DNA of 63,389 bases, the filler included, from Perkinsus chesapeaki ATCC PRA-425 (lineage: Eukaryota > Protista > Perkinsozoa), in the NCBI GenBank assembly GCA_013115145.1. It is 9 parts of 9 records of this genome, joined end to end, with 100 filler letters (N's around TTAATTAATTAA, not from the genome) between each part and the next. Parts side by side here need not be neighbours in the genome. Positions count along the whole stretch, not along the records: positions 1 to 8,065 come from JAAPAO010000993.1; positions 8,166 to 32,016 come from JAAPAO010000557.1; positions 32,117 to 35,169 come from JAAPAO010001471.1; positions 35,270 to 39,507 come from JAAPAO010001290.1; positions 39,608 to 52,325 come from JAAPAO010000805.1; positions 52,426 to 56,540 come from JAAPAO010001318.1; positions 56,641 to 59,508 come from JAAPAO010001506.1; 2 more parts are not named here. The stretch is one strand, 5' to 3'. The notes beneath the pieces are model-generated. The model was not told the DNA's origin, did no database searches, and was given only the letters and a program-made list of their open reading frames with translations. Below, in pieces: positions 4,031 to 57,410 of the stretch (the first letter of the stretch is position 1; each line of letters begins with the position of its first letter). A program made the translations under genes and the position numbers.

Positions 4031-4076
4031 CATAATTTTCGATTTGTCAATGACAAATCGAAAATTATGATGTCAT
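4031..4076. repeat. 19+1+19 perfect palindrome followed by TSD remnant (candidate transposon excision footprint)
   Basis: CATAATTTTCGATTTGTCA a TGACAAATCGAAAATTATG, then a + TGTCAT. TGTCAT repeats the end of the left arm plus the complement of the central base. Confidence 0.85.
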
Positions 4077-4819
4077 CATTACGAGGAAGCTTCTATTGCG
4101 TCGAGTATTAATTGCTGCCACCTAAACGTTAGAGGAAATGCGAATCTGAACTGCGGCTTGCGATTTTGACACCTCCAAGGTCGAGACGGAGGATCGGGTT
4201 AAGGCGGCGCTGATGAGATACAATCGCTGTTGTATATCAAGAAATAGCCATTGAGCTCTTGAACAGAAGTGCAGTCCTCACTACCGGAATGAAAGTCCAC
4301 GATTAACCGCGCGCAACAACACCAAAGTTAGTTGGCTCGCAACTGAACCACGCTCCATTCGTCGAGTTGCGCATGCCTACTTTTACAGCATGCGATGAGT
4401 CAGTATTGATGACACTACACAAGTTGTTTAACACAAAATACAAAAGTAAAACCTACCCCTTGACAGGTCGCAATTGTCGTCGGACAAATCGGAGAAGTGT
4501 TTGACGTACAGTAATTCCTTCCAGTGAGAACTGAAGCTGAGTCGTGCGGGTGCAAGGACGATAATAGCTATCAATACCAATGACAGCCATTGGCCGTCAT
4601 AGTCTCAGTCATTAAATTACTCAGATTATAATGGCCAGGCTGTACTACGAAAGAATGGATTTCCTAGCCAACTTGAACTACACAGTCTACAGAAAGATAC
4701 ATAGTAACATCATAATGAGGTCCTCATTGACATACAAGATGCGACTCACCACCGAAAAGTGTGCCGTGTGTAGGCATCTGTCGCGCCGAGCGCCGAAACT
4801 CGTTATTCATTAACAGCTA

Positions 4820-4841
4820 CTAAGTTGAACTTAGTAAGTTC
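4820..4841. repeat. Exact 22-bp hairpin-type footprint, inferred TSD CTAAGTTC
   Basis: CTAAGTT g AACTTA g TAAGTTC. Confidence 0.85.
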
Positions 4842-5063
4842 CGCAACTCGAGCCTAAATTAGTTGGAGAGACAGTTCGAGCCTGTTCTGTAGCGTCTGAG
4901 GAAATGTTTTGAAGAACGCCGAATTAACATTATGTCAATAATACTGTCATTATCAACGCTACACTAATTGACCTCAACTCATCGGCGATCATCAGCAACA
5001 AAGACAAAGTTCACTATTAAGCATTACCCTCTCGGAAAATACATGTGGAATGTGAGAGCAAGA

Positions 5064-5085
5064 TGTCAGAGTCTGACAGTCAGAC
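5064..5085. repeat. Exact 22-bp hairpin-type footprint, inferred TSD TGTCAGAC
   Basis: TGTCAGA g TCTGAC a GTCAGAC. Confidence 0.85.
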
Positions 5086-5344
5086 GTTCTGACGAGACGG
5101 CATCGACGTTCTGTAAGACACTAAGGATATTACTTCATTGAGAAGCTATATCTCAGAAAATATCTGGATCTCAGGATTTCAATCTTAGAAATTCTGTATA
5201 GCTGGACGCCAGCTTTATAAAAATTTCACTAGGAAACTGCCAGGAGATGTGTACAGTTGGCGGTCCAATTACTGGACTCCAGTACTATCAGGCTGAAAGC
5301 CAGTATCGACGACGAGTTCAAAGATACAATTGCCTTGGAGCATT

Positions 5345-6301
5345 TCATCTGATCACCTTTTCCATAGTCCTGAGAGCATCCAGCCTACCGAATGGCATTG
5401 GAGCTTTGCCATCAAAACTTTTAACCCCAGGAGTACTAGTAGATATAATTATAGACTTGATTTCTTTGACGGACAAGGGGCGTGGGGCCACGCTTTTCAT
5501 CATGGCTATAACGCCAGCGACTATAGCAGCAGAACCCGAGGTTCCAGCGAAACTGTCATAGCCACCAGACAGAGTGGTACTGTAAACATTGGCTGGAGCG
5601 GCTACGTCCACAAACGGTGCATAGTTGCTCTTTGAGTGGAGGTTCATGCCAGCATTATCCGTACCAGACACACATATGATACCGTCCAACGTCTTGGAAT
5701 ACTCGCATGGGTAACTAGTTTCACCGGGAAGTGATACATTCTTACCACGGTTGCCTGACGCGCAGATGAGGGGTATATTAGCCTGAGTAGCCTTAGTTAT
5801 GGAAGCCTCAACGGCGGCATTCTTCGGTTTCCAGCTGGCAGATAGGATTATAAGATCGACCTTCGAATCAACAGCGTAGTTGATAGCGTCAGAAAAATGA
5901 CGAAAAGCTATCGTCCCATAAACGCGGATGGGCATCAACTTGATGTGATCTGCAACACCACTTATACCTTTATCGTTATTAGTGACGGCTCCAACAACAC
6001 CAGCCATTGCCGTACCATGACCTGTAGTATCTTGGGTGTCAGCATTCTTATCCATCACATTATATCCAGTTACGATATTGCTCTTGAGATCCTCGTGGCC
6101 AGCCTGGATGCCAGAATCTACGAGGGCTACCGTAACCTTTTTCTGGGAAGGTATCGAGCGAGCTTTGGCCCATGCTGCTGGTACTCTTACAGCCTGAAAA
6201 TACGACTTCTGATGTACTTCATAAAGAGGGTCATTAGGGTCAGCGTTCACAGCAGTACAAACCAAGTATACAATGGTGGAGGCAAATCCCATTGTCCACA
6301 T
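5345..6301 (-). CDS. Secreted subtilisin-like serine protease (S8), intronless; start at 6301 or 6292
   Basis: Hydrophobic N-terminus. Catalytic motifs VDSG (Asp), GHGT (His) and GTSG (Ser); oxyanion Asn in ASGN; DPNDPLY resembles the mature N-terminus of thermitase-type enzymes. Confidence 0.93.
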   Translation of the reverse strand: MWTMGFASTIVYLVCTAVNADPNDPLYEVHQKSYFQAVRVPAAWAKARSIPSQKKVTVALVDSGIQAGHEDLKSNIVTGYNVMDKNADTQDTTGHGTAMAGVVGAVTNNDKGISGVADHIKLMPIRVYGTIAFRHFSDAINYAVDSKVDLIILSASWKPKNAAVEASITKATQANIPLICASGNRGKNVSLPGETSYPCEYSKTLDGIICVSGTDNAGMNLHSKSNYAPFVDVAAPANVYSTTLSGGYDSFAGTSGSAAIVAGVIAMMKSVAPRPLSVKEIKSIIISTSTPGVKSFDGKAPMPFGRLDALRTMEKVIR

Positions 6302-6780
6302 ATTATCAAATTATTCAAAACTATTTAATGAACAGTATTATTGCGAAGATGGCGCTTGCAGCGCGAGGCCCAGCTCCCCGACGGGGTTGCAAGCGGACTA
6401 AAATGGAACCGTCTACAACCTGAGTAACTTAGGCTAAGTTGTCGGGAGTATCTATGGGAGCTGTAATTGAAAGTTCCTGTACTGACAACAGAGAGTAATC
6501 TCTTTGTTAACTCGAGTTCCCTCAAACTGGGAGTCAGCTGCATCTGAACTCCAGATTCTGAAGCCGTAGTGAGGTACTGCGCCGCGCGCATGGCCCCTGC
6601 CCCGGCTGTCTGTTTTCCCCAATACCCATTGATGACCTCGAGAGCGCAAAGTAGGCTCAATAACCTCTAAGAATGGTCAGTAGCAACCAGCTTGCTGTGT
6701 TTACAGAAGGCCAGGACGCCCGAGGCCCGAGGGAGGATTTTTTCCGGACCGCTCCGCGAGCCGAAACACACTAATATGGC

Positions 6781-6802
6781 AGATGGGGCCCATCTGATGG
6801 GC
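6781..6802. repeat. Exact 22-bp hairpin-type footprint, inferred TSD AGATGGGC
   Basis: AGATGGG g CCCATC t GATGGGC. Confidence 0.85.
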
Positions 6803-7032
6803 TCGATGACAGTCTTGTAATATAAACTGAGTGCCTGCGGTGCTACAGTCTAGCTATGGACTATTAGGGCGAAAATTTACCCCTGAGAGTTAATCTATCC
6901 CTACTGTGCTGCAGTACCATGCTATTCAATACCGTGTTGTTGCATGTGTGTTGAGGGAGCATTTAGGGCGGCGAACTCTCTCAATTACTGGATAAAATTT
7001 TCTTGGGCGACCTAACGATTTCCTTGAATTCC

Positions 7033-7054
7033 GTACCCTCAGGGTACTACCCTG
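7033..7054. repeat. Exact 22-bp hairpin-type footprint, inferred TSD GTACCCTG
   Basis: GTACCCT c AGGGTA c TACCCTG. Confidence 0.85.
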
Positions 7055-7331
7055 GAATTTCCTGGGGATTTCACTTGTGAAATCTCCCGTGTAAAGCCTT
7101 CTTTCGACCAGAAGGTAGTCAACCAACTGGCTCCAGGCCTGGCCCAGACCGCCTGGACTAGCCAGCCGGTCAGGAAGTACACAACTGCTAGCTGGCCACC
7201 GACTCGTTGCAGCGAGGTCTAGTCCAGATCCGTGTAAACTACGGCCCGGCGTCAGTGACCCTGTTCCAAAGCACACCTGAATGCAGGATACCTAATACTG
7301 ATTTTTGGCCTCAAACTGCTGAATGGTACTG

Positions 7332-7369
7332 AATTGTACTCTAAGAGTACAATTGTAAGTACTACTCTT
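7332..7369. repeat. Two-hairpin footprint, inferred TSD GTACTCTT
   Basis: AATTGTACTCT a AGAGTACAATT (11+1+11), filler GTA, then AGTA c TACTCTT. Confidence 0.8.
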
Positions 7370-7464
7370 ATTTATTAATAATCATACCACTACAACTATT
7401 TCGGCCAAAGCTCCTCTACGGGCTGACACGACCAATATTTGCATAACGAATCGGAGCGCCCTGC

Positions 7465-7486
7465 TTGATGACTCATCATTGATGAG
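7465..7486. repeat. 22-bp footprint with one mismatch, inferred TSD TTGATGAG
   Basis: TTGATGA c TCATCA t TGATGAG (second spacer expected a). Confidence 0.6.
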
Positions 7487-7778
7487 GCAACTAGCTGATA
7501 TAGTTGTTAATCAAATGCATCTTGAACTTCAATCCTTCGAGAATCTGTCGTGTTAGTTCACTTGGTGACCATGTCTTGGTTCACTTGCTTGGCTGCCAAT
7601 TTGACAGTGCCAAAATATTTCAGCTGTTACAGCAGTGCTGTATCACAGTGCTACTAGCCCTGCTGTATTAGCAGCCACTACTGTACTACCACGGTTTAAC
7701 TCTCATAGAGGGTCACGCCGTTTCCCAATTTCATCCTGCTGAAGGGTGTCCCAGAAGGTCTACACCTATCACAGGTGA

Positions 7779-7798
7779 CCTATAGAATAGGCTATTCT
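7779..7798. repeat. Partial footprint (one hairpin, other end trimmed), inferred TSD CCTATTCT
   Basis: CCTAT AGAATAG g CTATTCT. Confidence 0.5.
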
Positions 7799-8284
7799 CC
7801 CTTCCTCAAGCCGAACAGCGCTTCCTACAGGGACGCATCGTATCCTTATCCTATCGTATCGTATCCTAAGGGACGGCCATCAACAAAGTGGCCACACTTC
7901 GTGACACGAAGTTCTTTTCTCCTCTTTTTGTCACTACTTCGTGGCGTCGCTGGGTCATCCATCGTATTCATATGTTCCTATATGATGTTCATATGATGTT
8001 CCTATAGACAACTCAATGCCAAATGGAACGAAGTGAACAAGTCTTAAACAAGTTCAACTTAATAANNNNNNNNNNNNNNNNNNNNNNNNNNNNNNNNNNN
8101 NNNNNNNNNTTAATTAATTAANNNNNNNNNNNNNNNNNNNNNNNNNNNNNNNNNNNNNNNNNNNNGAATGCAAGCACAACATTGACCAGGGGACCGGGGA
8201 ATCTGAATATAATGCACACGCATATCACTGTCATACGGCTATAATCTAATTGAAATAAACTGCATCATCCGAAACTGCACCACT

Positions 8285-8530: not shown

Positions 8531-8552
8531 AACGCTCAGAGCGTTACGCTCT
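8531..8552. repeat. Exact 22-bp hairpin-type footprint, inferred TSD AACGCTCT
   Basis: AACGCTC a GAGCGT t ACGCTCT. Confidence 0.85.
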
Positions 8553-8584: not shown

Positions 8585-11468
8585 TCACTTACCTCGATAT
8601 TTGTGCCGGCGCTGTTCATTTTTACGCGACTGGCGTAGCTGGAGGCGCTCAATCTTAGCGTCTCGTAGAGATGCAAGGGTGGTATCGTCAAAGTTGCCTC
8701 CTACCGGGCAGTACCAGACCAAACTGCCGGAATCCAAAGCAAAACGCTCGTGCTTAACTTCCATATTGTTGAGCTTGTGTCTTAAAGTGCCCCCCATGGG
8801 CAATCGGCATAGTGAACATTTTTCCCCTTCCCCTCCACGGACACTACCTCATAATCTCCTACGCGGGCACGCGCCCGGGCGGCTGCCTCTCGTTTCGCCA
8901 AGAGCGTCGCCGGATCCCGCGTTGGAGCCTTTGGGCACCGACCGAATCGCGTACCATCGGGAATATGACCGTTGAACTCGGTTGCAGCCACCGGCAGACG
9001 GCAATACTTGCACAACATATCAGAGAGTCGTCGCTGTGAACCACCATGAGTATTACTCGTCTCTTCATTGCTATCGTTCCTGTGAGGTCCCGCACCACCA
9101 ACAACAACGGTGTTTCCAACGGTACTAGAGCTTACCCAAGCCCGCAAGAATTCTTCCAGAGCGATATCCTGAGCCTGTACCGGTTTGGGAGTCCCAAAGG
9201 AAAGCAGCCTCCACGTCAAACGGTACTTTCCCTAGCCGGAGGGACACGCACCTCCTGCTGGTTAAGCTCTTCCATGAGCCTAAGCACGGCCTCCATCCCC
9301 GTAGATGTAGTGGCCATCGTCGACTGCCGATTATTTAGTTTGGCCATATACGCCCTAAGGTCTGGCTGGGATATGCGGTGTAGAGGTAGGATTTCAGTAT
9401 CATGGTCTAGGGCCTTATCGATCTCCAAGAATACCCTTTTATTATACTCACGCCATACATCTTCTGGAGTCCCTTTATCAGCTGGGAGAGATGACATGAT
9501 GTCGTGCAAAGTAGTCCTCACCATTGGAGTCCAACAAGCCAGCGGAACGACTGCGGTAGATGCGCGTAGGCCCTTGAGACGTAAGAACCTTTTGCGCGTG
9601 TCGGGGAACTGAGGACTTTGGCGAGAAGATCATTAGGATTCTCCTCAGTGTCAGCTTGACCATCAAGGTCAGCCGCAGTTAGTGAGTCGAAGTCAGCGAA
9701 ACCTTCTACGTCACCTAGAGAGTTGTCATCAGTCTGGCCGCCGTCACAATCGAAATCGGCTGATTCCCCGCTGACACATTCGGCTAGTAACTGGTCGAGA
9801 GCATTGCTGTCAATAGTTTGTAGATATTCACTGCCGAATTTGATGGTGGGCTCACCATCGATGAGAAGCGCTTCTTTCACACGACTGAGCTGCGTCAAGG
9901 ATACCTCATCAATAGAGGATAGGGAACGGGATAGTGTCGTGGCCGTTCAAGGTGTGGTTTACTTGCCGATTATGGAATATTACTTTCCATAAACTCCTGG
10001 CATCGAAGAGCTCGGGCCCCAATCTTGTGATGCTAGAGTGGCTCCTCTTCCATACAGAGTGCAGGCACTCATTAGATGATGTTCCCCTCCGACATTTGAG
10101 CTTTCCATTATGATCCTTGATATCCATAGGAGTGAGCGGGTTGTCTGTCAAGCAGCCAGCATCAATGTGTGTCATCAATGAGGTATAGCTACTCCAGAGG
10201 TAGGCGCCCAAAAGAGTGTGGACCCTACTCTCCTCCTTGCTAGGGTCGTCGCCATGGGACTTCCGAGCCTCCTCGTCCAGGAGAAGGTATGTCTTGACAA
10301 CCTTCTCCACGCGCTCATGGAGTATCTCTGGTGATGGTATCCCTCTATGAACATTCTGCCTTAATCCTATGCGGCTCGGATCATCTGCCTTCCTGCCATG
10401 ATAGTTGCTCTCAATCTCATTGACAGGTATTCCAATAGCGCCAGATACTAAATTTTTCATATTGGTAGAAGCTGTTCCACAACAAGAGCAATCCTCATAC
10501 AATGTTAATCGCGGAGCGCTTGATCCCAATGGTCGGTCGATAACTCGGCCTTTCAGATCAGAGAATGCCAGCTCCAGCTCCTTGCTGGAAGTCGAGCCCA
10601 CTAACACCAAGTTCCAATACCGTACCCGTCCCATCGATCAAGGCACAGATATACCCTCCAGATCGGCACTGGGTAACTCTTTTGCAGACAGGCCTTGAGT
10701 GAGCGATAGAAGTTATGCCGTCGCACCGGTAGCTCTCGGGTTCCCTCAATGGTACCGATTTATGCCTCCGATAATCTTTAATGAACGCATTCTTCAGAAT
10801 GTAATAGCTCAAAGCCGGAAGTGGGCAACAATTGTGCGACAAGGAACAACGTTTACACCAACTACCTGGGGCGGCCTTGGTATAGCATTCTCGATATCGA
10901 CAGGATCTCCTAGCTGGCTCTGGAAAAGGGAGTGGGTGCGCCACCTCTCCATAGTGGCCTCAAATAACTGACGTCTCCTAGCCAGTGCCAGCTCCTCGGC
11001 GCCCTTAGCTATGGATAATTCTGTTTGTATCAGCCCCCCTCCCCCAACCCTTAGGCTGGGCGTCAAGCAAACGCTGAATTGAGCTTTGTCGGTAATAATG
11101 TACTGGAACGTCAAGTCTTGCGCTATATGCCGAGGTAAAGTCTTGAGGTACCTACCATAGAATTACGGCGGAAACGATATGATGGTTGTGCTCACCTCTG
11201 TGCCGTTGATACCCAAGTATAGGTACACTGTCGACACTGGCGTTTCAAACTATACAGCTTGACTGGCCACCCCAGATGGTATAACTTTACAACTGGCGAT
11301 ATCCTTGCTTGCGCTGTGCGCAAGGCTAGAGGATTTTGGGCATGCTCCGCCCCGTGGCGTCCACATTACTACAGAATGGGAGCATAGGTTTTTAGCGAGG
11401 TTCTTCGGTGTGGACCTTCTCGCCGCCTCTCCCGGCCGCGGCGGGTGATAAACATATAACCCCGGCAT
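8585..11468 (-). pseudogene. Degenerate intronless DUF6729-like, probably transposon-derived ORF with two C-terminal Zn-binding motifs
   Basis: Consecutive ORFs in shifted frames. Motifs VVMWTP..CP, LYEDCSCCG, GCLTDNP, KCRRGTSSNECLH..FHN, CKYCRLP..GH..RCP and CSLCRLP..KH..YCP resemble the eukaryotic DUF6729 family as I recall it. Frameshifts e.g. near 10630 and 8810. Confidence 0.55.
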
Positions 11469-11560
11469 GGATGCATCGTCACGGCTGTGCTTTCCCAGAA
11501 TGTCATTAAGATTCTTTAGAGTTCGACGAATGATGCTGATATAGTGTAATAAGAGAGTCT

Positions 11561-11582
11561 GGTGAGACTCTCACCGTGAGAG
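11561..11582. repeat. Exact 22-bp hairpin-type footprint, inferred TSD GGTGAGAG
   Basis: GGTGAGA c TCTCAC c GTGAGAG. Confidence 0.85.
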
Positions 11583-11788: not shown

Positions 11789-11810
11789 GTGTAAGCCTTA
11801 CACTGTAAGG
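11789..11810. repeat. Exact 22-bp hairpin-type footprint, inferred TSD GTGTAAGG
   Basis: GTGTAAG c CTTACA c TGTAAGG. Confidence 0.85.
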
Positions 11811-11904: not shown

Positions 11905-13021
11905 TCATGCCTTAACTGCCTGTGCTAAAGCATGGAAAATAGAGCGCTTATCCCACGGGTACATATCTGTACATAAACTATATGCCGGGTCAATCATAAT
12001 ACCGCCAAGGCTCATCTTTCTAACCAAATCTACTTTCTCTACCGCTCGTGGCTGAGAGAAAAAGTAATACGCTCCTGCAGGAGGGTATAAACGGGATCCA
12101 TTCCCCTTCGGATCAGCATGCATATCAAGGAGCACAGATGCATATCCAACATCAGAGGTAGCATAGTCAGCTCGCGCAATAAGAGGGATCTGAAGGAAGG
12201 AAGAAGTACCAATAGCAGCAAACCTCGTGATTCGATCAAAGTACTCACTCTAAGAATTATGTTTCTAGCATTTGCTCCGGCATTCATAGCTGTCCTTATT
12301 TTACGGATAGCAAACGCATTGGTATTGAATGTCTTTGCGAGAGACTTTCCGAAGTAGGGACTTAAGTAAATAACAGTGTAATCTGCAATTGCACCTAAAC
12401 CACTCTTCTTCACAGTTTCTTCGAACCCGGGCCAATACCTGAAAATACAAGAGACATCACAGATACGCTCTGTTCACTCTACTATAACAGGAGCGGTTAT
12501 CCTTACTGAAGAATAGCAGTCTTTCCAAGTGACTTGACAGTGCTGAGGACCTTGTACGCAGCCTCTGCCTTGCTCGGCATGTCTACATTAAATAAGAAAC
12601 CATCTACAGAGTAGTCCTTTATGAACTGCTTTGCGCTCTGACGGAAAACTGACTCATCAAACTTCTCGTTGTTGAAGTATTCTCCAAGCTCTAACCAGAT
12701 ACTTCCACCAACACTTGATACTTTCTGCTTGAAGTTAGCAAAGACACGTTTGTTCCACTGCGGATAGGATGGGGGATCTTTTGTGACCTTGCTTTCAACT
12801 ATGGAAAAGCCACCAAACAGAAAACGCTTGACTCCGTGAGCCCTAATGGTGTTGAAGAACCAATCCCAAGTATAGGTAACATCCTGTGGACATAGAGTGT
12901 CGTTGAAGCAGAATTGCCTTTCTCTAACAGCCCAGGGGTATAGAACACCTTTATAAAAGGGTACGTCAGCAGCGGCTCCCAGATTGAAGACGAGTAATAG
13001 GATCTTCACGTCGGCAAACAT
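11905..13021 (-). CDS. Secreted GH18 chitinase-like protein, probably non-catalytic; ~3 exons
   Basis: Signal peptide MFADVKILLLVFNLGAAAD; VDGFLFNVD at the DxxDxDxE position; C-terminal YYFFSQPRAVEKVDLVRKMSLGGIMID resembles the GH18 barrel end; intron CTTCA|gtaagg..ttcag|GTAT. Confidence 0.65.
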
Positions 13022-14289
13022 TAGTCAAGGCTCGTGTACCGGCTTTATATAGCAACTCTCGTAGTCTTAGTGAAGACAGCAACTTCATCCTTGTCATCCT
13101 TTAAGCGGAGCGGCTCTGTTTACACCCATATTATGCGCCATCGTGTGCGCCCGTGACACACATGGAATATAACTTCAGTTACTCATTCTGGCTCACTTAT
13201 TCGGCAATTTCTGCTCAGAGACAACCTACTCCTCGATGAGTCGGATAATGAAGTTCACTCCTAATAAAACATTCGTTTGAAAGGAAGAAGTTCTATGTCA
13301 CCGGTTCTGTCAAGTTCTTGTGCTATCGCGATTACTGAGATAGTGCTGTCAAAATACAAGAAGAATTTCTTGTGCTATCGTGAGAACTAAAAGAGTCTTA
13401 TCAAAATAAAGTGACAAGTTTTCGTGCTATCTGTCGCAGGCCCTGCGCCGCCGGCGCCTCCCGTTAGTTTTTAAAGCCCTCGGAGGCACGGAGCTGTCGC
13501 AGTGTTGTATCGGCAGCGGCCGTTTTCCCTCTTGCCCTTATGGTTCCCTGATGCGTGGCAGTCTTCAGTGTCGCGGGTTTCACTCCGCGTGGCGAGGTCT
13601 GCGACGGCCGGTGCCATTCGACGCACAGATTCTGCATCGGAGGCGCTGCCGATAAGTGTGGCTCTCCGCTTTCGTCCGGAACATGGCTCACCAACAAATC
13701 AAAGTATAAGTTACTCATAATGACTAATTGTAGGCAATGTGACAACGATACTTCCTAAGTACTCAAGTTGATTCGACTGGATGGCCGACGGCAGCTCGCA
13801 GTAAGCTGTAAGTCGCGCCTTTAAATCAACATTCGGTTGCGCTTCATGTAATATCATTGATGATGTTCGACAGTTCCATTTGCGAGAGCTTCATACATTT
13901 GTGTATGGTTAGCCTGATGATGCTAGATATTGAAGTATAAAGAATAAAAACTGAGTAACCTAGGTCAAATGCTCCTTTGTATGAGTTACATCATGAACGA
14001 TGTTGGCCGGAAAGGTGAAATCTACCTGATAATTATAAAGCTTGAACAGATTCGTATCCGACTGCAAGTCTCAATAGCGATCATTCACATCAACGTTGGT
14101 TCACACTGGCACTCTGGCCGAATGTTTGTGAAGCTGTGCATCATTTCAGTCAATAACAGGGATCCTTTGCATCCTCTATAAATAAGTTCGAATTATAAAT
14201 CAAAAGCTATCTGTGGGAGATAAACCTGTTACGTATAACCTTAGGGTATGGTGGACTACTGAAAATTGACTTGTTCAACATATTTGTTA

Positions 14290-16831
14290 TCATGAAACAG
14301 TGGGTGATGGATTATCTGGCAACAATCGGACAACACCCAAAGCTATCCTAGCAAGCTCTGATGGATCATGCTTTCTGCTCATTAAACCACGTATTAACCG
14401 TGTTGCTAAGATACATCTCTCACATGCTATCTCGCCGCCAAGTTCTCTAGCGTAAGTATCAATCCATTCGTCTCTGTAGAGCTGCATTATAGAGCTCAAT
14501 ATGACGCTAATCTGCCAGGCTTCCAAGGATTTATATTCATCAAGTAAAAGTGGTAGATAATGGTGGAGTAACTCGAGCCCAAGGTGACACAATCCAGGCA
14601 GAATAGAGCAGCCTCTCAGGACTAAGGTGATCGTGTCGAAAGCAAATGATGAGGGTGGAAGAGATATCTGACAGAGGTACTCAGCTGAATCCGAAGTCAG
14701 TTTCTACTCACCAATTGCGGTAATATTGACGTTTTCAGCAGAACACAAGCATCGGATCCTGTCCAATTACGATTCTCTACCAAACCATTGGTATAAGCCA
14801 TGGTGATCGCTTCACAAACAGCTCCTGCATCTCCGACTGAAAGCCTCCTTGGTGGATTGCGCTTCTGAAATCAAGTCACTGTCAAACTTGCAACAAGTTA
14901 TGTAGGGCAAGGTATTACGAGGCATCCAACGGTGGCATTGAAGAGCTGAGCTTGTGCTCTATAATGATGAACTGTCGATCGCCCATCTATTGGCTTTACT
15001 CCTACAACGTTGTTCAATAGACTAACTAAGTTGCGGCAGCTGATTAACTGTCGCTGTCTATTATCTGTTCCAGATGGGCAATGTTGGGATGATAGCTTGT
15101 TGGAAAGGGCACTATATAGTTCTACGTTAATATAGTTAGTAGTTTTGCACGCACTCATGTACCGAATTATGGTCTGAGATAATCATGACGATATGATCCA
15201 GAAACCGTGAGTTCACACTTACTTCAAAAGTTCCTCTATCTGATCGTACATCATATACTATAATCGCATGCAATGCTTCCATCTCAATAGACCGAAAACA
15301 TTTACGCCCATCGGGTAAAGATGACAGATACTCGATACCCTTAACAAGTTCACCACGGTGTATCTGAGAGAACAGCATACACAACGTGAAGAAAAGCAGG
15401 TAATGCAGTGAATGGTGCAGTGAATACCGATCGTCTTTCTCTGGCCAGATGGTGCATCAGCTCCATTGCTGACCTAGCGGCAACTCTAGAGGTTATGCTA
15501 GTCATGTGATTTAACAAAGTAAGGAGAGATGGAAGGAAGCCTACTGAATGAAAAAATAAAAATACAATGAAGCCATGGCTTGAGAAAAGAGGAACTCTCT
15601 GAGAGATTTACATATCATTCGGATCACACAGGACCTGCGCAATTCTGGGATATTTCATAACAGTAACAACGCTAATTTAATAAATATACAGGGTCACCCT
15701 AGAGAATATGATCTTTTCAATAACTTCTTCAGGGATTTGCGAAAAGTCCGGCTCAACAGCTTTCGAACGCCAGACTCGTCGTCTGAGGATTCACCCTCCC
15801 AAAAGAGTTCTTCAAAAAAGAGTCACATCTTTGGGTCGCTTGGGTGCGAACATTGAACATCTACTATGAGCATATTTACATACTATACAGTAGAATACCG
15901 CCACATTATATACAACAGAGTAAGTAAACGACTTGAAGTCGTGCTAGAACGGGTGGGGTGCTCAACTATATTCACGTACATTACAGTATCAACAACAACA
16001 ACAACAACTGCGGCGGCGGCGGTGAAGTGTTGCTAGTAAAGGTGGCGTCCTGCGCATGCGAATGTGATAAAAACAATCCTCTGATAGTCGAAACGGTAAT
16101 AAACACAAGCATTTATGATGGCTATTATCTATGGCTAAGGAAAGGACTGTAGAATGATGATAGCTAGAACCATAGCTTGAATCGTTTTCGTTCAGCGGCC
16201 TGAAGATGTCATATACCGCAAGTCTCCAAGTCGAAAGCCGTGTTGAACAACGATTCTTACGTCTTCAGCTTCTAGCATTTTCATACCGCGTCTAAGTAAT
16301 CTTGCAGCTTCTTTCTCCGCATCAACTCCAGTAGCTTCATCGAATTCACGTACTAAACAAATGCCCCTCGACTATTCGGCCATTCACACAATTTCATCTT
16401 GATAGTGTTAACAAAGAGTAATAAATTAATACTCTTTGTGCAATAACAAGATATATGCTAAACTACCATCCAGTTTTGGTGCAAGTGATTCCACATTCAT
16501 AAGATTAAATGATTCAGCCGAGTCTTTTAATCTTTCCATGGCAGATTCCCTTCGACATGCACTACGACGATTGAGATAGAATATCGGCATCGTCACCAAC
16601 CATACAATAGGGAATGTTCTTGTTACCGCACGATACACTAAAATACAATATTTGTATTTATAATACTACTGAACCACTAGTAGCCTTACCACTACCAGCC
16701 ACTACAGGCTCCATCACAGAGTGTACTCCAGCTGCAGTAATAGCAACTACACCCGATGCTTGAGCAGATGACAATAACAACTCTAATGATGTTCTCTCAT
16801 GTATGTCCCTATGTCGTAGATTTATAACCAT
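14290..16831 (-). CDS. Probable multi-exon gene, Leu-rich helical protein of unknown function (approximate)
   Basis: First exon MVINLRHRDIHERTSLELLL...|gtaagg; several further open segments with GT/AG ends. Confidence 0.35.
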
Positions 16832-17066
16832 TTACACTTATATTTGCATATAATTTTAGTATTGCCAGCCTAATTGAAATAATTATATTACGCAACACTC
16901 AGTTCATAATAAACAGCTTTCGCTAAGTTATTGAATACGTTGTTGAAACAATCGTGATATCACAGACCACCGTTACCATCATCTTCACGATTGGTCGGTA
17001 TAAAATGATATGTTGTTACTGTTGTTGGATTTATTAATGGTAAATATTAATAGGTACAAGTGTAGA

Positions 17067-21853: not shown

Positions 21854-21999
21854 AAGACGTTTATGATAAGGGTTATAATAATTAAACCCCTTATACAGTC
21901 TTACTTATTACTCAACTAAACATTGATATGAGTAGTAGTATAATTATACAATAGTTATGATTGTACATTAACAACATGTTACACAAGTAGGAGGAGGGG

Positions 22000-23249: not shown

Positions 23250-23259
23250 GCTTTACGTT

Positions 23260-23288: not shown

Positions 23289-23347
23289 TTGTCTAATAAT
23301 AGTTGCAGGTGAGTTTCTCCTTTAAGGTAATTAGACCTCTGTCAACG

Positions 23348-26652: not shown

Positions 26653-26694
<42 letters not shown>

Positions 26695-33424: not shown

Positions 33425-33446
33425 TCGGCAAGTTGCCGACGGCAAC
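33425..33446. repeat. Exact 22-bp hairpin-type footprint, inferred TSD TCGGCAAC
   Basis: TCGGCAA g TTGCCG a CGGCAAC. Confidence 0.85.
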
Positions 33447-34448: not shown

Positions 34449-34540
34449 ACGACGTACACAGTGTACGTCGTGCCTGCCGTTAACGGCTTGCCTACTACGT
34501 ACAGTGTACGGTACACTGTACGTAGTAGGCAAGCCGTTAA
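34449..34540. repeat. Adjacent 11+1+11 and 30+1+30 perfect palindromes forming one two-hairpin footprint, inferred TSD CGTACACT
   Basis: ACGACGTACAC a GTGTACGTCGT, filler GCCTGCCG, then TTAACGGCTTGCCTACTACGTACAGTGTAC g GTACACTGTACGTAGTAGGCAAGCCGTTAA. Confidence 0.9.
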
Positions 34541-34660: not shown

Positions 34661-34682
34661 GTCGATAGTATCGACTTGATAC
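34661..34682. repeat. 22-bp footprint with one CpG>TpG mismatch, inferred TSD GTCGATAC
   Basis: GTCGATA g TATCGA c TTGATAC. Confidence 0.7.
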
Positions 34683-39346: not shown

Positions 39347-39370
39347 TGTTTTTGTAATTGTTTTCTCTTC

Positions 39371-39507
39371 AAGGGGAGGGAGATGTGATTGTGTTGGCAC
39401 ACAATCCGCTGTCTCCTTTTACAAGAGCTAGGCTAAGTGCAGAGTTTTACTATTGTTTGTATAAAACAGGTATCTTTATTTACAGGTGTCGAGTTCCTGT
39501 GATAACA
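39371..39507 (+). mobile_element. Polypurine tract (39371-39383) and 3' LTR (39384-39507, TGT..ACA; may be cut by the contig end)
   Basis: AAGGGGAGGGAGA directly before TGTGATTG; identical sequence occurs in reverse at 59609-59680. Confidence 0.85.
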
Positions 39508-39607: not shown

Positions 39608-39680
39608 TGATAGGAAATATGTTACTAGTGATACAGAGGAGGAGATATAATAGAAAGGAGTTTGATAGGAAATATGTTAC
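39608..39680. repeat. 55-bp tandem minisatellite (same family as 1-69)
   Basis: TGATAGGAAATATGTTAC repeated at 55-nt period. Confidence 0.85.
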
Positions 39681-39692
39681 CAGTTCGGGCAA

Positions 39693-45994
<6,302 letters not shown>

Positions 45995-46088
45995 TTTCAT
46001 ACCGCTCTTTTCTCTGATCATGCCTCTGTTCCTTTGTCACTGTCATCATCGTCGGCCTTAAAGGCTACTATTAATAAATCGATTAATC

Positions 46089-46102
46089 GGGCGCGCGCTT
46101 TT
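46089..46102 (+). promoter_or_regulatory. Fourth copy of the GGGCG[A/C]GCGCTTT motif
   Basis: GGGCGCGCGCTTTT preceded by AATCGAT, between the CDPK 3' end and the next gene. Confidence 0.55.
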
Positions 46103-46609
46103 GACTTGAGCCGCTGCCTGTGTTGTTGTGGTTTATAACATTCCTCTGTTATATACATGATAACTTATGTTCCTACTGTGTTAGCGGAGCGAAGCGATTA
46201 TTGTTTGCCATTTTTCGTATTGGAAATTTTGTTGGTCGGTTTTGACCAGGTAAGAACGCAGACAATTCGGTTTCTTTCCTCCACTACTTTTCAAGGGCTA
46301 TAAACGCCTTTGGAAATAATATTCTTCGGTCACTGTCGGTCCGGAGAGTGCGGCAGTGATAGAGCATCATTCGTATAGAAAGTTGTTACGTCAGAAGGTA
46401 ACTCGATTATCTCTGATTACACTGTGGGCATGCGTGCATACCGCTCCTTTCTCAAATCCTACTACATGGTTGTGCCCATTCGGTTATATATTTGTTATCG
46501 TCATCAGTTTTGGGCTTGTCGATAATTTACCCAGATTGTGGTTGTTGTATCGATTAAGTTCAATACTTGTAAATTAGCGTCTCATTCCTACTTTCCTTCC
46601 TAATAGTTG

Positions 46610-49600
46610 ATGATGATAGCAATATTACAGTTTGTGCCAAATTGTGTTGGTAAATAGTCGGCTTGTTCAGCCTTCAGCAGCGTCTCTGTGGCCACCACTG
46701 ACAGCGCTGCTGTGGTTGATCAGGTCTCTGGCCACGAGAGTGCCACCGTTCATTTCGAGGATAGTTTAGAAAAGTTTGGTATGACAGTACCGTCGACTCC
46801 GCAACCGTCCTTGCCGATCGATCGAGTAGCTTCATCGTCATCAGCGGACTCGCCGACAGACGCGCTTTTGAGAGATCTGAGAATCCATGAGAAAACTGGC
46901 GATATGACACCCGCAGCGGCGCTGGCGTTTTCTCATCACGGCGTGGAGGCGCACCACGGCGTGAATGACGGAGGCAGCAGCACGCCCATGATGGTCACAA
47001 CGCCACGGATGAGACTTCGGAGCAATGGAAGTGAACAGGAGCTTCTGGGGGCGGCGGTGGCACCAAGTACAGTGAGACCGAAGAGGATAACGAGGATACA
47101 TAGCATGCCATCTGAATCGTAAGGGAAGGGACATTCGACAAAAATGCGGTATGAAAGCGTTTACGTATTTCGTTTTTCTTATTTTTTCACTTTCTTTCCC
47201 CAGTTTTTCCAATTTTTTCCCCATTTTTTTCTTTTTTTTCCAATTTTTCCAATTTTTGTTATTTTTTTTCATTTTCATCTTCCTACCTTCACGTTTCCTC
47301 ATTTTTCTTCCCTCCTTCATACCCTACTAATCCCTTAAATAAATACTGTCTCGTTAATATTTTCCTGCGGTTCATTCTGAAGAGAGGGAGATTTGTGTGA
47401 ATTTGTGTCTGGTTTCGGTTGCTATAGCGGTTTGTTGAACTCATTCGTTGGTAGACAATATTTCGGTGCAATTTTCTGCTACGAAATGTGAAATGATTTC
47501 CTCTGTGGAGAAGTATCGTAACTTCTTTCGACTCAGCGGAATTCATTTTCGGTCGCTTCCGTCCTTGCTTTGCGATTCCTCCACCAGAAACTCTCGCTAA
47601 GATCGTTCGGAAAATTTCCTAAAATATTCCAACTATAAGTTTGATAATTGTTGTATTTTAAAATGTATCGTTTTGTTAGGTATAATGTTTACCAAGCTCC
47701 TATGTTCCATCAATTGGTGTTGAAACCATTCTATCAAAGGCACCCGATCTCGAACGTTGTTATGGGCCTCGTTATGGGCACGTCGACGTAAGCAAGGAAG
47801 GCCCTTATGCAGAAATTTTGTGGAAAATTTCGGGAAAATCTGTATTTTTTGTGTCTACTGTTACATTGTTGATTCTTTTTTGCGAAATTTTCGAAAATCG
47901 CTGAAATCACCTCTCCATTCCAAGATGATCCTTGGGCGCTCTCTGCAACTCCCCTGTGTTGAGTTGCGTTTTCAGATACGCTCGAACAAGCATTCGCGAG
48001 GGTGTTGGTAAAATAATAAGATTCCCTCATCTGCACTGTGGAGGATTCATATTTATACCAAATCCAAAGTTCCACGAGGATCCGATCACGGTTGCTGTGA
48101 TGGCGAATAATTTGCGAGAAGGTCGAGGTAGGCAGCTTGTAGTTGATATGATGATTCTTGGACCACGAAAATTTGTAAAGTTCTCGCTCGAATCGGTGAT
48201 CTTTTTTGACTGGTTTGGTCGGCTTGACGCTTGAACCAACAGCACTGTGTGAAGGGGACAGCTTTCGGTCACTCAGTAGTACCGAAGTTTCGTATTGTGT
48301 TACTCCGACCGAGAAGCAATGTATGGAGAGGAAGGCAGCCTTTCGGATTCGGTTATGTCAGGTTTTGAGACTGGCTCCTTTCGGTTTGTCGTTTGGTGGA
48401 TACCTGAGGAACTCTGGTCAAATGTGGAAGAGTGGGTGGATAAGGCAAGCGAGGAGAGGACCTCCGACATAGCAGCAGCATCAGCTGGTAAGAATTATGT
48501 GGCGCGCGGTCATTTATGGTGTTGGTGCATGATCTCATGAAGTGCCTTATGGATATTGGCAGGCGCACCAAATTCAATGGAAATTTCATCGCGAGAAATC
48601 GTAGTGTTTTGGTGTCTACAGTGTTTCTAACAGACATTGTTGTTTAATAGACATATAACTGGACATATTTTGACATGATCATTTCATCCAGATTTGATAG
48701 GTATTAGTAGCGCATCACCGTGTCCATTTTTACTGTGTACTAAATCCTCTTTAGGTGTTGCACGTGAAAATTGTAGCTCGGAGAGATTGAGTGATTATGA
48801 CGTAAGTGGTTTTGGCAGGCATGTCAGGCTTACAAATGGTATTGTTAGTTTTCTGGTATTAATTCATTTGACGATATTCCAACACCAGTCGGCGCGCCCG
48901 GTGATTTCCGGTTCAGTGACGTGCCTAAGCCTGGTGATGATAGGTAGGTCGGTTCAGAGCGGAAATGGAAGTCCATGGCAATCTTCTGTGCAAGAAATCA
49001 TATTTTCGGCTCCTTTAGTGGCGGCAGCACTCTGTTACGATTTTCGGCTGATAGTCGCATCGGTGGTGCATTGAGATATTTTTGATGGGGATAGTTGTCC
49101 GGTTTACCTTTACTGTAGCTAGGAGCATCGGGTAGCGTGGGTCTATTTAAACTGGCGGTAATTAGGTTTATTAAGTCTTATTTACGATAAGTGTTGTCTG
49201 GTGGAGATCTTAGTTAATTTAAATTAATAACGCTCTTCAACTTACAATGCCTTGTAGCCTAGTAGTTTGCCGATAGACAGTCGAAGGTTAAAACGGTAGC
49301 TTGGGTATTTCTCGTGAGTATCCCCCTTTGGTTTTCTTGTGTGAATGAATTATCCTTCTTTTATAATTATCAGTTATCTTCATACATATCGAGATCTCGA
49401 TTCTCCTGTCCATGCGGAAATGCTTCGGCTCCTGCTTGATGAGTGCCAGCAATTTTTGGTGTCCTTGTTGGGAGATCAATTCATTAGCGGAGCGAAGCTC
49501 AGTATGGGTTTTCACTATCCTGTCCGAACGCAGTATTCGACACTGCATATGCAGGTGAGGAAGGGTTGATATTTAGAGAGCGAATCTTTGGTTGAAGCGT

Positions 49601-52425: not shown

Positions 52426-52606
52426 TAGTAGCAGTTATCTAATCATAATAACAATATGTTATTATGGTCATAAGACCGTCGTATTTATCATCATTATAAT
52501 AATAACACAATTACTTATTCAGTGAGCTGGGTTTAGTAGCAGTTATCTAATCATAATAACAATATGTTATTATGGTCATAAGACCGTCGTATTTATCATC
52601 ATTATA
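52426..52606. repeat. 73-bp perfect direct repeat, period 108
   Basis: 52426-52498 identical to 52534-52606. Confidence 0.9.
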
Positions 52607-52671
52607 GTTCAATAACATTATTAGTCCCCCCCCCACCACATCCCCCTTACTCTGACAGCTCTTTTATTTTT

Positions 52672-52717
52672 GGGCGAGCGCTTTTTTGAAAACTGATCGA
52701 TTAGACGATCGATAGCC
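52672..52717 (+). promoter_or_regulatory. Candidate ribosomal-protein promoter module (GGGCGAGCGCTTT-N21-CGATCGATAGCC)
   Basis: Collinear with the RPS9 upstream block; ends 34 nt before the RPS3 ATG. Confidence 0.7.
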
Positions 52718-52751
52718 TGTTTCAGGTTTGAATTGGTATCCCCTATCCAAG

Positions 52752-53522
52752 ATGGCAACCGCAGCAAGTCAAAAGCAGGTCTCTAAGAAGCGTAAGTTCG
52801 TCGCCGATGGCGTGTTCTATGCTGAACTTAATGAACTACTTACTACTATATTGGCTGAAGATGGTTATTCTGGTGTAGAAGTACGTGTAACCCCTATTAA
52901 AACTGAGATTATTATACGTGCTACTAGAACACGTGAAGTACTTGGTGAAAAAGGACGTAGGATTAGAGAGTTAACTGCTCTTGTTGAAAGACGTTTTGAT
53001 TTCCCAGAAAACTCTGTTGAACTATTTGCTGAACGTGTTGATAATCGTGCTTTATGTGCTCAAGCTCAAGCCGAATCACTTCGTTATAAGTTATTGGGTG
53101 GTCTACCTGTACGTAGAGCTGCTTATGGTGTATTAAGGTTTGTTATGGAGAATGGTGCTAAAGGTGTTGAAGTTACCGTATCTGGTAAATTACGTGCTCA
53201 ACGTGCTAAGGTTATGAAGTTTGCTGATGGTTATCTTCTATCTACTGGTACACCTAAGGAAATGTATGTTGATCAAGCTATTCGTAATGTTGATATGCGT
53301 CAAGGTATTCTTGGTATTAGAGTTAAGATTATGATGGCTTATGATCCTGAAGGTAAAAGTGGTCCTAAAACACGTTTACCTGATGATATTACTATTCATG
53401 AGCCTAAGGAGGATACAGTCTTCCCAGTTGATACTACCACCCCTACTCAAGAAGAGCAACAAGAGGAGGAGGAGGCTACTACTCAACAGCAAGAGACTGC
53501 TGGTGTTGAGATAACAGCTTAA
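52752..53522 (+). CDS. RPS3: 40S ribosomal protein S3 (uS3), intronless
   Basis: [66 protein letters not shown]. Confidence 0.98.
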
Positions 53523-53749
53523 ATAGTAGTAATGATGATTATCAATAATGATGGTCGTTGGTGATGATTACAACGCTAATGTTGGTGTTGTTGTTCGTAT
53601 GGCGTTATAACAAGTATATAACCATCATTATAAAGGTCATTGTAGTCATAAGAGACCAATGTCATTGATAAGCCGCTACTTGCTATCCTGCTTCGGGTTA
53701 TTATTATAATTATTGTGTTATTAAAACACTCAATTAAAAACAACAATAA

Positions 53750-56034
53750 CAACAGTCGCCAACAGTATTAATATTATTAAATGGATTTTTTAATAGATTC
53801 ATGTATCAATGATTTTGCTATATTATCTTCGTTAGGCAATATTGTCTTCATAAATTTTTTCATAGCTTTATCGGTTGTTGTTGTATTATATTTATTTATT
53901 AACTTTGGTGGTGGTGGTGGTTGTATTGCGTGCTGCTGCTGTTTCTGTTGTTGTAATGGTGGTGGTGTTGTTGTTATAAGATCATCATCATTTAATAATG
54001 TTGATACATCTGAATAATGTTTAATGTTGTTATAATTATAACTTACAATCTTTAGTAAGTATAATATCATCTTGTGTTGTTGGTATTGCTACTTCACGTA
54101 ATATCTCGTATGGTTCAATCTCATCGCCTTGTGTTAAATATTTATTATTTTTAATAAATATCTCATCATCATTACGATTTTGTGATTGTTGCCCCATTAT
54201 ATAAGTATTATTGCTACCAAATCTAGCAGTCTCTTGCTGCTGCTGCTGATGTTCTATGATAATCCCTGACCTAATACTAAATAACAAGAACAACAGCAGC
54301 AGCATTGTTATATTACATTTTGTTATTCGTTTTTTTTAAAGTTGTTGAATTATTGTTATCTATCTTTGATATTGTTGTATTATTGTGTATATGTTGTTTA
54401 ATATTATTATCTTTCTTATTATTTATTATATAATCTATACATTATCGATTATTAATACTATAATACCTTAATTTAATAATACCTTCACCATCTATAATAT
54501 CTTCTCTTATATCATCGTCACCATCATTATGTGTATACATAATCCCTGAAATAACAATAATAATGACTAACACTAATAACAACAACAACCATCAGCATTA
54601 TCATAATATTCTCCTTCTTTATGTTGTTGTTGTTGTTGTTTACTATATCTTATAATATTAGCCTCATCAAGTGCTCTTTGCCATTGTCTAACTTGTTGTT
54701 TTCTACTACTAATATTATTTAATATATTCTAATAATCAAGTATTTAATATACTATGGATTATTATTACATTATTTATTTTATCTTCTTTTTTTATAATTC
54801 TATCAACTGCATTAGTAACTTCCCGTACAGCATCTTTATGTCCCCCTAATTCGCGATATAAATCGTTCAGTGACACATATCTATATCTCACATATAGTAA
54901 TAATAATAATAATCTACTTATTAATACCCCGATAATCTTCCCCTATCAATAATACTATTTCTTTTCATTCCTGGTCCTGGTCCTGGTCCTGGTCCTGATG
55001 GTGGTGGTGGTGGTGGTCTTCTGTGTTGAGTATAATGTATATTATTAGTATTATCAATATCTTTATATTCTCTAACAATAACAACTGCTGCTGCTACTAT
55101 TATATATGATAACTATTACTTCTTGTTATATTCTTCCTTATTATTAATATCCATTTTAGTACGTTTTTCTGTTTCTTCTCTTTTTGAACGTGAATGTGTT
55201 ATATTAATTTTATTATTATTATTATATTGTCTATTCCGTAATTTCACCACTTTTTCAACAACTTCTTCTTCTTCATGATCAATTAATTTAACTCTTTTTA
55301 ATAAATGTATATGATGATGATGATGATTATCATTATATTCCACTAGTAGTAATATCGCTTTACGTTGAAGATCTTCTAAATATACTCTATGATGTGCAAG
55401 TGCCTAAATACTAACTACTATTACTATTACTAATAATAATAATCTATATATTGTTACCTTGCTTAAACGTATATTCCTTCCTTTAGCTTCTCTTATTAAT
55501 GTATTTATCAATTCATGTCTTATATTACGATTAGATGATGATGAATGAACATCATCATCATCTTTATTATTATTAATTGATAAGGCTTCTTTATAACGAT
55601 CTTCCATATCTATTATATGTAATTTATGATATTCTATTGCCTAACATGCTCATCTTGTTATATTCAGTACGGTGATCATTAATAATAATAATACATTACT
55701 ACTTTATATAATGCATTCAACCATTTATAAGATTCATTTATATGATAATCTATCTCATTACGACATTCTTTATTTTTAAATCTATGCCGACTTATTCGTT
55801 TAACTAGTTCATCGTGTGATGTTAATACCTATATACAATAACAATAATAACAATAATAACAATAATAACAATAATAATAGTAACAATAATAACAATAATA
55901 ACAATAATAATAGTAACAATAATAATTAATATATTTACTCTTTTCATTTCATTTTCTTTTCTCTTAGCAATTTGTAATACTCTATCAAATTCTTCTTTAT
56001 CAATATCTCTCTTGCTCGTCCTCCTTAATAACAT
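53750..56034 (-). CDS. Probable AT-rich multi-exon low-complexity gene (approximate)
   Basis: Chain of minus-strand open segments rich in Q/N/K/E; no domain recognised. Confidence 0.3.
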
Positions 56035-56436
56035 TAATAATAACTAATATTATAAATACCGCTGCATTCCATTATTACATATAATCGTCCTTATTCTTAT
56101 TTCCCTTTATTTCCCTTTGTTGTTGTTGTTTAATATAATGATGATGATGATATGATGATGACGATCCACCTGTCATCATCACCATTGTTATTATTATTAT
56201 GAACTAGTCATTGTTGTTGTTATTAGTACTACTACTACTACTACTAACCTGGGTTAGGTGTATGTCTACTTCTACCACCACAAGGAATCCAATCATCGTA
56301 TTCTATTATATTATCATATATTATAATCATAATAATACTTTATAATAATATTATTATACCAAAATATTTCATTATAACAAAAAACAACAAACACTCATAA
56401 TAACTTCATGAAACCTTATTATTATTATCATGATAA

Positions 56437-56540
56437 GAATTATAATAGATATACCAACTACAATAATAATTATAATAGATATACCAACTACAATAATAAT
56501 TATAATAGATATACCAACTACAATAATAATTATAATAGAT
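56437..56540. repeat. 30-bp tandem repeat AATTATAATAGATATACCAACTACAATAAT x3.5, running into the contig end
   Basis: Directly visible. Confidence 0.93.
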
Positions 56541-57383
56541 NNNNNNNNNNNNNNNNNNNNNNNNNNNNNNNNNNNNNNNNNNNNTTAATTAATTAANNNN
56601 NNNNNNNNNNNNNNNNNNNNNNNNNNNNNNNNNNNNNNNNGCTGAAACAGGGAGTTAGAACTTCGTATTCTACGGTACTGCCGGCCAGGGGCCTTAAGTT
56701 GCGTCAAATAACTCAACCTTTGTGCCTCATCTGGACTTCAGCGGTAACGGTACAGATAACTTTCGACCGTCTCCGTAATACTCAACGATTGTTCGATAAT
56801 TGAAGTCTGAAGCAATGAACTACGGATAGCAATCATCACGACGTAATAGGACTCGAACCGGACCCATATTCGCCTACTCCCGGAAAGTGACTTTTCGCCA
56901 GAGGTCAGTGATTTATGATGAGTCGCCCGTTTGCAATTTACGGGGCCTAGATTTTGCGACTGCCTGGTTGGTCAAGTGCTGCTTCGCTGGTCGTGTGATA
57001 GCTTTCTATTGGAGATGTTTGATTCGAGCAGTATCGAGACAAGGAGGATGAAGGAAGTCAATAAGGAGAGAGCGCCGATTTCCGCTTCGCTTGCTCATCG
57101 CATAATGTTCGCGATTTTTCGAGGTATTCCCAGAAAGAAATTCGCTAAGCAGACCTTCCACTATCGCTGTATCACCGTGTAATGCCCCTAGATGCTTTAT
57201 TTCATACAATGTATATGTATCATATATGTTTTATGTTCATGTATGTTTCTTATATGTAATAATGTATCGATATTATCACAGCTGCGACACAACTCGAGTG
57301 AGAAAGGGCATAAGACAAGTCTCACACCCTAAAGTTGGCAACGGTTTAGTCACGAAGCCATCGAGCAGTGTACTCAAGGAGGG

Positions 57384-57410
57384 GCTGCACAGTGCTGCGC
57401 AGCCTGCACT
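57384..57410. repeat. Two-hairpin footprint with one mismatch, inferred TSD GCTGCACT
   Basis: GCTGCAC a GTGCTGC GCAG c CTGCACT. Confidence 0.6.

Follow-up and report, generated by a model that had tools for sequence, protein, structure and literature searches.

Excision footprints of DNA transposons have been described most closely for Ac/Ds of the hAT superfamily, for which cleavage was placed at the flanking nucleotide (PMC1978519) and the footprints were found to be palindromes centred on the complement of the element-adjacent base, with joints showing microhomology in 85 to almost 100% of cases in Arabidopsis and in 88-89% in S. cerevisiae, and with arms of up to 20 bases in yeast (PMC5873905). 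In this study, we analyzed a 63,389-nucleotide stretch of the genome of the shellfish parasite Perkinsus chesapeaki ATCC PRA-425 (assembly GCA_013115145.1), here called the window, which is a gapped draft of 11 pieces set apart by runs of N, most of which enclose a 12-base spacer. Its non-coding DNA carries a recurrent 22-base mark that is probably the excision footprint of a transposon that duplicates 8 bp of its target and leaves hAT-type hairpins on both flanks, the two ends having been joined via the inverted duplication. These marks share with the Ac/Ds footprints of plants, Saccharomyces and Candida albicans the palindromic (P) nucleotide tracts with the same centre, the microhomology and the 8-bp duplication. 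Whereas the Ac/Ds data come from induced events at one engineered site and consist of heterogeneous, mostly short footprints, the window holds one full-inverted-duplication product at dozens of natural sites, and short footprints are not enriched in it. The chemistry of such a scar is itself known, and the exact 22-mer may already have been published among the minor footprint classes; what is unusual is its uniformity and density in a natural genome.

A one-base offset of the Hermes nick is reportedly documented by Zhou (2004) and Hickman (2018), and the footprints of Ascot-1 at a single locus in Ascobolus are said, after Colot (1998), to be non-random and to consist of short inverted repeats joined at microhomologies. 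Hermes and TcBuster both combine flank hairpins with an 8-bp duplication (PMC6900584, PMC2803484, PMC3499496, PMC4763223). The Hermes target preference, nTnnnnAn (PMC2803484, PMC6900584), is weakly echoed in the window, but the TcBuster consensus, nnnTAnnn (PMC3499496), is not seen in the scars, and no such transposase occurs among the window frames scanned. Muta1, a MULE, likewise forms flank hairpins with 8- or 9-bp duplications and has tandem subterminal repeats like those of a high-copy repeat in the window (33682-34270); it differs in excising mostly precisely in yeast (PMC5499845), and the window holds no scars of length 9 or with zero offset. V(D)J coding joints and Transib resemble the scars in hairpin opening, P nucleotides and microhomology joining, but their exact-boundary cleavage gives palindromes without a centre base and a 5-bp duplication, neither of which is enriched in the window (PMC6900584). 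A full-text literature search, with most subscription papers outside its coverage, returned no description of scars of this shape in Perkinsus, in keeping with the statement in the first-pass annotation of this DNA that none was known from perkinsids, and no paper on Ku70 and end joining in this genus; PMC2868825, PMC8062965 and PMC10368747 yielded no information on either hAT elements or end joining in the genus.

The footprint pattern was defined as X[1-7]+rc(X)+X[2-8], where X is an 8-mer with bases x1 to x8, rc(X) is its reverse complement and c1 to c8 are the complements of its bases. Every 22-mer of the window was scanned, mismatches were counted against the majority of the three copies of X, and 200 shuffles that kept dinucleotides within 500-base blocks served as the control. 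The window contains nine exact footprints against a shuffle mean of 0 (maximum 0), nine with one mismatch against 0.04 (maximum 1), 14 with two mismatches against 0.95 (maximum 5), and 37 with three mismatches against 11.3. The observation is real and highly significant. All eight exact positions named in the first-pass annotation were recovered, and a ninth was added (63050); the two near-matches it had listed, at 7465 and 34661, each carry one mismatch by the three-copy majority and are joined by seven further copies of that class. The enrichment over shuffled controls that it required is present within the window.

The same annotation had predicted a sharp peak at a word length of 8, and this peak was found. 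Among 72 geometries, combining nine trimming patterns with word lengths 5-12 (60 shuffles), only length 8 with one base trimmed at each joint, denoted (1,1), was enriched, with nine exact matches against 0.02. Trimming (1,1) gave a single exact match at length 7, located within a compound site at 34498, none in the window at lengths 9-12, and three against 1.6 shuffled at length 5, where the untrimmed pattern (0,0) gave 0 against 0.3; at length 8 the untrimmed X+rc(X)+X was absent from the window. Palindromes with a one-base centre and arms of at least 7 bases numbered 41 against 5.4 in shuffled sequence. Those with spacers of 0, 2, 3, 5 and 6 bases stayed near chance (10, 3, 8, 3 and 6 against 6.1, 4.0, 4.0, 3.6 and 3.7), and those with a spacer of 4 were mildly elevated (13 against 4.3). 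As in hAT footprints, the tracts have a one-base offset, each palindrome having as its centre the complement of the element-adjacent base. Short classical footprints (a,b = 1,1; 0,1; 1,0) were at chance level or of low complexity.

A long-tract class, for which exact target halves and tracts on both sides were required, was scanned at lengths 6-10 against 60 shuffles and yielded three footprints at length 8, compared with 0.05 in shuffled sequence, and none at lengths 6, 7, 9 or 10. The tracts of this class span 5-31 bases; such variable tract length is a feature of hAT footprints, as is joining by microhomology, the main product here corresponding to annealing over the inverted duplication. 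Since only length 8 is enriched, both among the 22-mers and in the long-tract class, the scars themselves point to an 8-bp target duplication. A 61-bp palindrome at 34480-34540 consists of the right tract of the 34453 footprint plus flank, and folding of 34430-34550 gave two perfect hairpins and nothing further. A fourth long-tract match, at 62307, is one-sided and was dropped under the rule requiring tracts on both sides.

The route that we propose, of which the product alone is observed, would begin with an insertion that duplicates X. At excision, the flanks would be nicked one base in and sealed as hairpins, a step established for hAT elements; the left hairpin would join x7 to c8 (x1-x7 then c8..c1) and the right hairpin c2 to x1. 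Host enzymes would then open both hairpins several bases off the tip, leaving 3' tails c8..c1 and x1..x8, which would be complementary over up to 8 bases because X was duplicated on both sides. Annealing of these tails, trimming of flaps and filling of gaps would give x1-x7+rc(X)+x2-x8, which is 14 bases longer than the empty site. The first-pass annotation had placed the annealing in a shared 6-bp inverted core, and annealing does yield the exact string, although it could involve as many as all 8 bases instead of 6. Wherever the two openings overlap inside X, the same product would result, a funnel reflected in the nine splits a+b=8, all of which recover the same nine exact footprints. Variable hairpin opening would leave some joins out of register, and these rarer products, seen as sequence in the long-tract class, would retain the two target halves, together with tracts of unequal length and a little filler. 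Likely by-products with no sign of function, the marks would then decay through point mutation. Because the short Ac footprint is not enriched, hairpin opening in this organism would have to lie at a greater distance from the tip than in plants or Candida. Precise or deleting repairs would leave no readable mark, so the dominance that the first-pass annotation gave to this repair route is conjectural.

The 18 target words with at most one mismatch are unrelated, with a best pairwise identity of 5/8. T at position 2 and A at position 7 (nTnnnnAn) fill 17 of 36 places against 9.8 expected locally (P=0.007, uncorrected, for the prior hypothesis), and the words lean weakly to the Hermes type; a TcBuster-type preference was not seen among them (T4 at 11 of 36). 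Fold-back microhomology of even one base occurs at just 4 of the 36 scar ends, compared with nine expected by chance. The hAT-excision reading put forward in the first-pass annotation thus finds agreement in a string that follows exactly from hAT chemistry, in long-tract variants restricted to length 8, in the lack of fold-back microhomology and in the weak nTnnnnAn bias.

Several results weigh against this reading. The T2/A7 bias weakens to P=0.07 once corrected over all 16 cells, and the short classical Ac footprint, found four times against 1.8, is not enriched. The hAT transposase (BED, DDE, hATC domains) that the first-pass annotation had suggested looking for did not appear: a Pfam scan of 245 window reading frames, run in sets of 18, 148 and 79 with 256 frames listed in selected regions and short frames taken from outside 16000-32016, 40400-47300 and 52426-56540, returned no hAT, MULE or BED family. 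The elements or MITEs (miniature transposable elements with inverted repeats) with 8-bp duplications that it also anticipated fared no better, the window offering only low-complexity or chance pairs in place of a convincing 8-bp duplication with terminal inverted repeats. A decayed transposase of 2.9 kb and a Gypsy stretch of 4.2 kb carry no 22-mer, though both should tolerate one. No alleles were found at the scars in 1-8060, a region that appears single-copy and uniform in all four runs compared. Paralogous contigs were compared over 33150-35169. At the 33425 footprint, those of all four runs end at 33430 or 33431, the end of x1-x7, without resuming; a filled site or some later rearrangement would look like this, but the empty state is not demonstrated by it. 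Other paralog comparisons lean towards the reading. Across the 34661 footprint, a paralogous contig spanning 34520-34912 omits 14 window letters and adds 5, in sum; the shortage matches an empty site, but could be the sum of several small gaps. Paralogous contigs also break or run shorter over the scar-bearing stretches of 34374-34745, and across the compound site they break, one of them having 84 letters for the window's 127.

That some transposase forming flank hairpins made the scars is highly probable, and the alternatives within this group concern which enzyme did so and when. The same excise-and-anneal route could have been driven by a MULE-group or Dada-type DDE transposase (groups that share a C/DxxH motif) with a one-base nick and an 8-bp duplication, which we regard as unlikely. 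Muta1 shows that a MULE can combine flank hairpins with 8- or 9-bp duplications (PMC5499845), an 8-bp duplication was left open for some Dada elements by Kojima and Jurka (PMC3706591), the window holds a decayed DxxH DDE transposase with full-length kin in P. olseni and P. chesapeaki and a resemblance to DUF6729 and Mutator-like clusters, and the high-copy repeat has subterminal motifs at a 15-base period, as in Muta1 ends. The mixed 8-10-bp duplications of a Muta1-type enzyme are nevertheless not reflected in the scars, none of which is exact at length 9 or 10 or has zero offset, and Muta1 excision in yeast is more than 90% precise (PMC5499845); Dada elements make 6-7-bp duplications inside small RNA genes, but the scars lie at unrelated words in a window without tRNA or Rfam matches, and their weak target bias is hAT-like. 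Hit-and-run integration, an improbable account, would have gap filling halt at x7 and the bound transposase hairpin the flank and free the element, leaving a scar without a stable insertion. The nicked excision intermediate would have the same structure as an integration gap filled at 7 of 8 bases, and RAG reportedly resolves intermediates of transposition by forming hairpins on the target DNA (Melek and Gellert, 2000). Such a process would account for the presence of 17 scars within 3.4 kb of intergenic sequence without any filled element being seen, but short-read assemblies break at filled repeats, and selection purges insertions while tolerating 14-base scars, so the missing filled sites require no new chemistry, and the paralogs ending at x7 of 33425 could themselves be the filled state. 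We consider it improbable, too, that perkinsids turn hairpin-capped breaks into one near-deterministic product and that most scars come from a hit-and-run or non-hAT DxxH transposase striking repeatedly beside secreted-protein genes. Were this so, the transposase would be a site-biased mutator that has written several percent of the local regulatory DNA and left no elements, and repair would combine long opening with annealing and involve little classical end joining.

Explanations without a transposase fare worse. Template switching or fold-back synthesis in replication or break repair produces direct-inverted-direct triplications and requires no element, in agreement with the lack of one in the window, and the one-base-centred palindromes at 33880, 33956 and 9191 have no second target half nearby. 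However, this process, which we hold to be very improbable, would account neither for a length fixed at 8 nor for the same one-base trimming of the two joints; it needs fold-back microhomology in the empty site, which is as rare as noted above, and the long-tract variants retain the 8-mer duplicated at both ends. A sequencing or assembly artefact, through library fold-back chimeras or mis-joins, might be suspected in a gapped draft of 11 pieces. We compared the window with read-built contigs from the runs of two studies, four of the five runs found being possible sources of the window DNA, so that these contigs are not a second strain. They cover 1196-8020 (run X1) or 3661-8020 (runs X2, X3 and X5; run labels unrelated to the word X) at about 100-fold depth with no differing letter and no gap. 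Because contigs of two studies cross the scars unchanged, an artefact is excluded for practical purposes; moreover, the scars decay by point mutation and avoid an intact reading frame.

The scar distribution is patchy, the 18 scars with at most one mismatch lying on 5 of the 11 pieces and 11 of them on the first. The first-pass annotation had spoken of a genome-wide scar code; scars are indeed many in the window, but extension to the genome is an extrapolation in view of this clustering. The subtilisin frame at 5345-6295 is flanked by two hot spots and itself contains none of the 18 scars, nor any at two mismatches or fewer, in line with the excision reading. A 16-kb AT-rich housekeeping block has three scars at that threshold, which are doubtful, as about one chance match is expected window-wide. 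Around the subtilisin gene, 17 scars of 14 added bases each account for about 7% of 3.4 kb of intergenic DNA, which is a large local effect. A single genome normally gives no view of DNA transposon excisions, whereas a fixed scar of this kind would record the target word, the position and, through its mismatches, the relative age of a lost insertion. Because the scar describes itself, a single assembly could suffice for counting both target preference and cut-and-paste turnover, as insertions lost against insertions kept. The scars would also read out hairpin opening and end joining in an early-branching alveolate, which bears on the design of genome edits in Perkinsus. The coordinates of all footprints and hot spots are listed in the following table.

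Table. Footprints and scar hot spots in the window (positions along the whole 63,389-nucleotide stretch).
Feature	Position	Details
Exact 22-bp footprint	4820..4841	Pattern scan; unchanged in read contigs
Exact 22-bp footprint	5064..5085	Pattern scan; unchanged in read contigs
Exact 22-bp footprint	6781..6802	Pattern scan; unchanged in read contigs
Exact 22-bp footprint	7033..7054	Pattern scan; unchanged in read contigs
Exact 22-bp footprint	8531..8552	About 40 bases past the last aligned codon of the Dada-like fossil
Exact 22-bp footprint	11561..11582	Directly upstream of the Dada-like fossil's first aligned codon
Exact 22-bp footprint	11789..11810	Pattern scan
Exact 22-bp footprint	33425..33446	Paralogous contigs align to 33430/33431 (X base 7), then no resumption
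Exact 22-bp footprint	63050..63071	Pattern scan; not in the first-pass annotation
One-mismatch footprint	4707..4728	
One-mismatch footprint	5263..5284	
One-mismatch footprint	6419..6440	
One-mismatch footprint	6542..6563	
One-mismatch footprint	7465..7486	
One-mismatch footprint	7593..7614	
One-mismatch footprint	7621..7642	Overlaps the two-mismatch footprint at 7640
One-mismatch footprint	34661..34682	One paralogous contig 14 window letters short in sum over 34520-34912
One-mismatch footprint	58283..58304	
Long-tract footprint	7336..7369	Exact target halves; tracts 12 and 5 bases; filler 3 bases
Long-tract footprint	34453..34517	Exact target halves; tracts 12 and 31 bases; filler 8 bases
Long-tract footprint	57384..57410	Exact target halves; tracts 5 and 5 bases; filler 3 bases
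Probable one-sided long-tract footprint	4031..4076	19-bp arms around one base (palindrome 4031-4069); second target half with one mismatch
Scar hot spot downstream of subtilisin gene	3760..5345	5 footprints with at most two mismatches; 3.2 per kb
Scar hot spot upstream of subtilisin gene	6295..8065	12 footprints with at most two mismatches; 6.8 per kb
Two-mismatch footprints in upstream hot spot	7136, 7560, 7640, 7763, 7897	

The decayed DDE transposase lies on the minus strand at 8590-11525, in five pieces that are 42-63% identical to a 1031-residue P. olseni protein, and is interrupted by stops and at least four frameshifts. In its family, the residues D345, D376-x-x-H379 and E528 are nearly invariant among 36 relatives, 8 of which match DUF6729; neighbors in the Atlas are DUF6729 and, below 0.9, Mutator-like clusters, and full-length proteins of this family are named from both P. 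olseni and P. chesapeaki. Cysteine motifs were spotted by eye, the Dada description including a DDE triad with DxxH, N-terminal CCCC and C-terminal CCHC fingers, and genes without introns in Perkinsus. The fossil may fit that description, a comparison made with the published account of Dada. For P. marinus, eight Dada families are listed, with 6-7-bp duplications in small RNA genes (PMC3706591). Scars flank the fossil without sharing its target, no tRNA fragment was seen beside it, and tRNA and Rfam scans of the window gave no matches. Merlin remnants, an element type with 8-9-bp duplications, have been described in P. marinus without identifiable ends (PMC8101967).

The MITE-like high-copy repeat at 33682-34270 is sharply bounded and includes variants with internal deletions, and its 7-base motif recurs at a 15-base period and is inverted between its ends; the window copy lacks about 25 left-end letters common to other copies, and an exact 24-base pattern of the repeat had no match in metagenome contigs. 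Another copy of the repeat shows a net length difference of +14, which was not counted as support because a gain of one 15-base unit with the loss of a single base would account for it just as well. Where the window copy departs from the others (loose ends at 33937 and 33953), there is a one-base-centred palindrome (33949-33963) whose centre base has no obvious fit to the hairpin rule. None of the three, the Dada-like fossil, the high-copy repeat or Merlin, is tied to the scars.

The subtilisin frame (5348-6292) is 99% identical to a P. chesapeaki protein, with its next relatives in P. chesapeaki and P. olseni, and belongs to a Perkinsus multigene family. The scar hot spots adjoin genes for possibly secreted proteins and not the housekeeping block; the frames at 12503-13024 and 58530-58952, without a Pfam match, have a hydrophobic start and are possibly secreted. 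The Pfam scan also identified ribosomal proteins L4 and S3, a JmjC/cupin piece and a Gypsy-type integrase. The Gypsy-type retroelement, recognized by its integrase matches, occupies 35270-39500, its 3' long terminal repeat (LTR) following a purine tract and starting at about 39385, and the same LTR start recurs inverted at 59609-59680. Short multi-copy repeats occur at 1077-1225 and 7993-8065, the second of which starts LTR-like and ends the first piece. A tandem unit of about 47 bases at 1-73 and 39608-39690 has extreme summed depth in all runs compared and is probably a satellite. Two long palindromes, at 61819-61856 (3-base centre) and 25248-25271 (0-base centre), fall outside the one-base rule. 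Within the gene at 2724-3630, four stretches of 79-307 bases are passed over by the contigs of runs X2, X3 and X5, as expected of an intron-less paralog or of RNA-derived contigs. The 410 codons of the ribosomal protein L4 gene at 23303-24565 are uninterrupted by introns, and the opposite strand carries an open frame of 371 codons.

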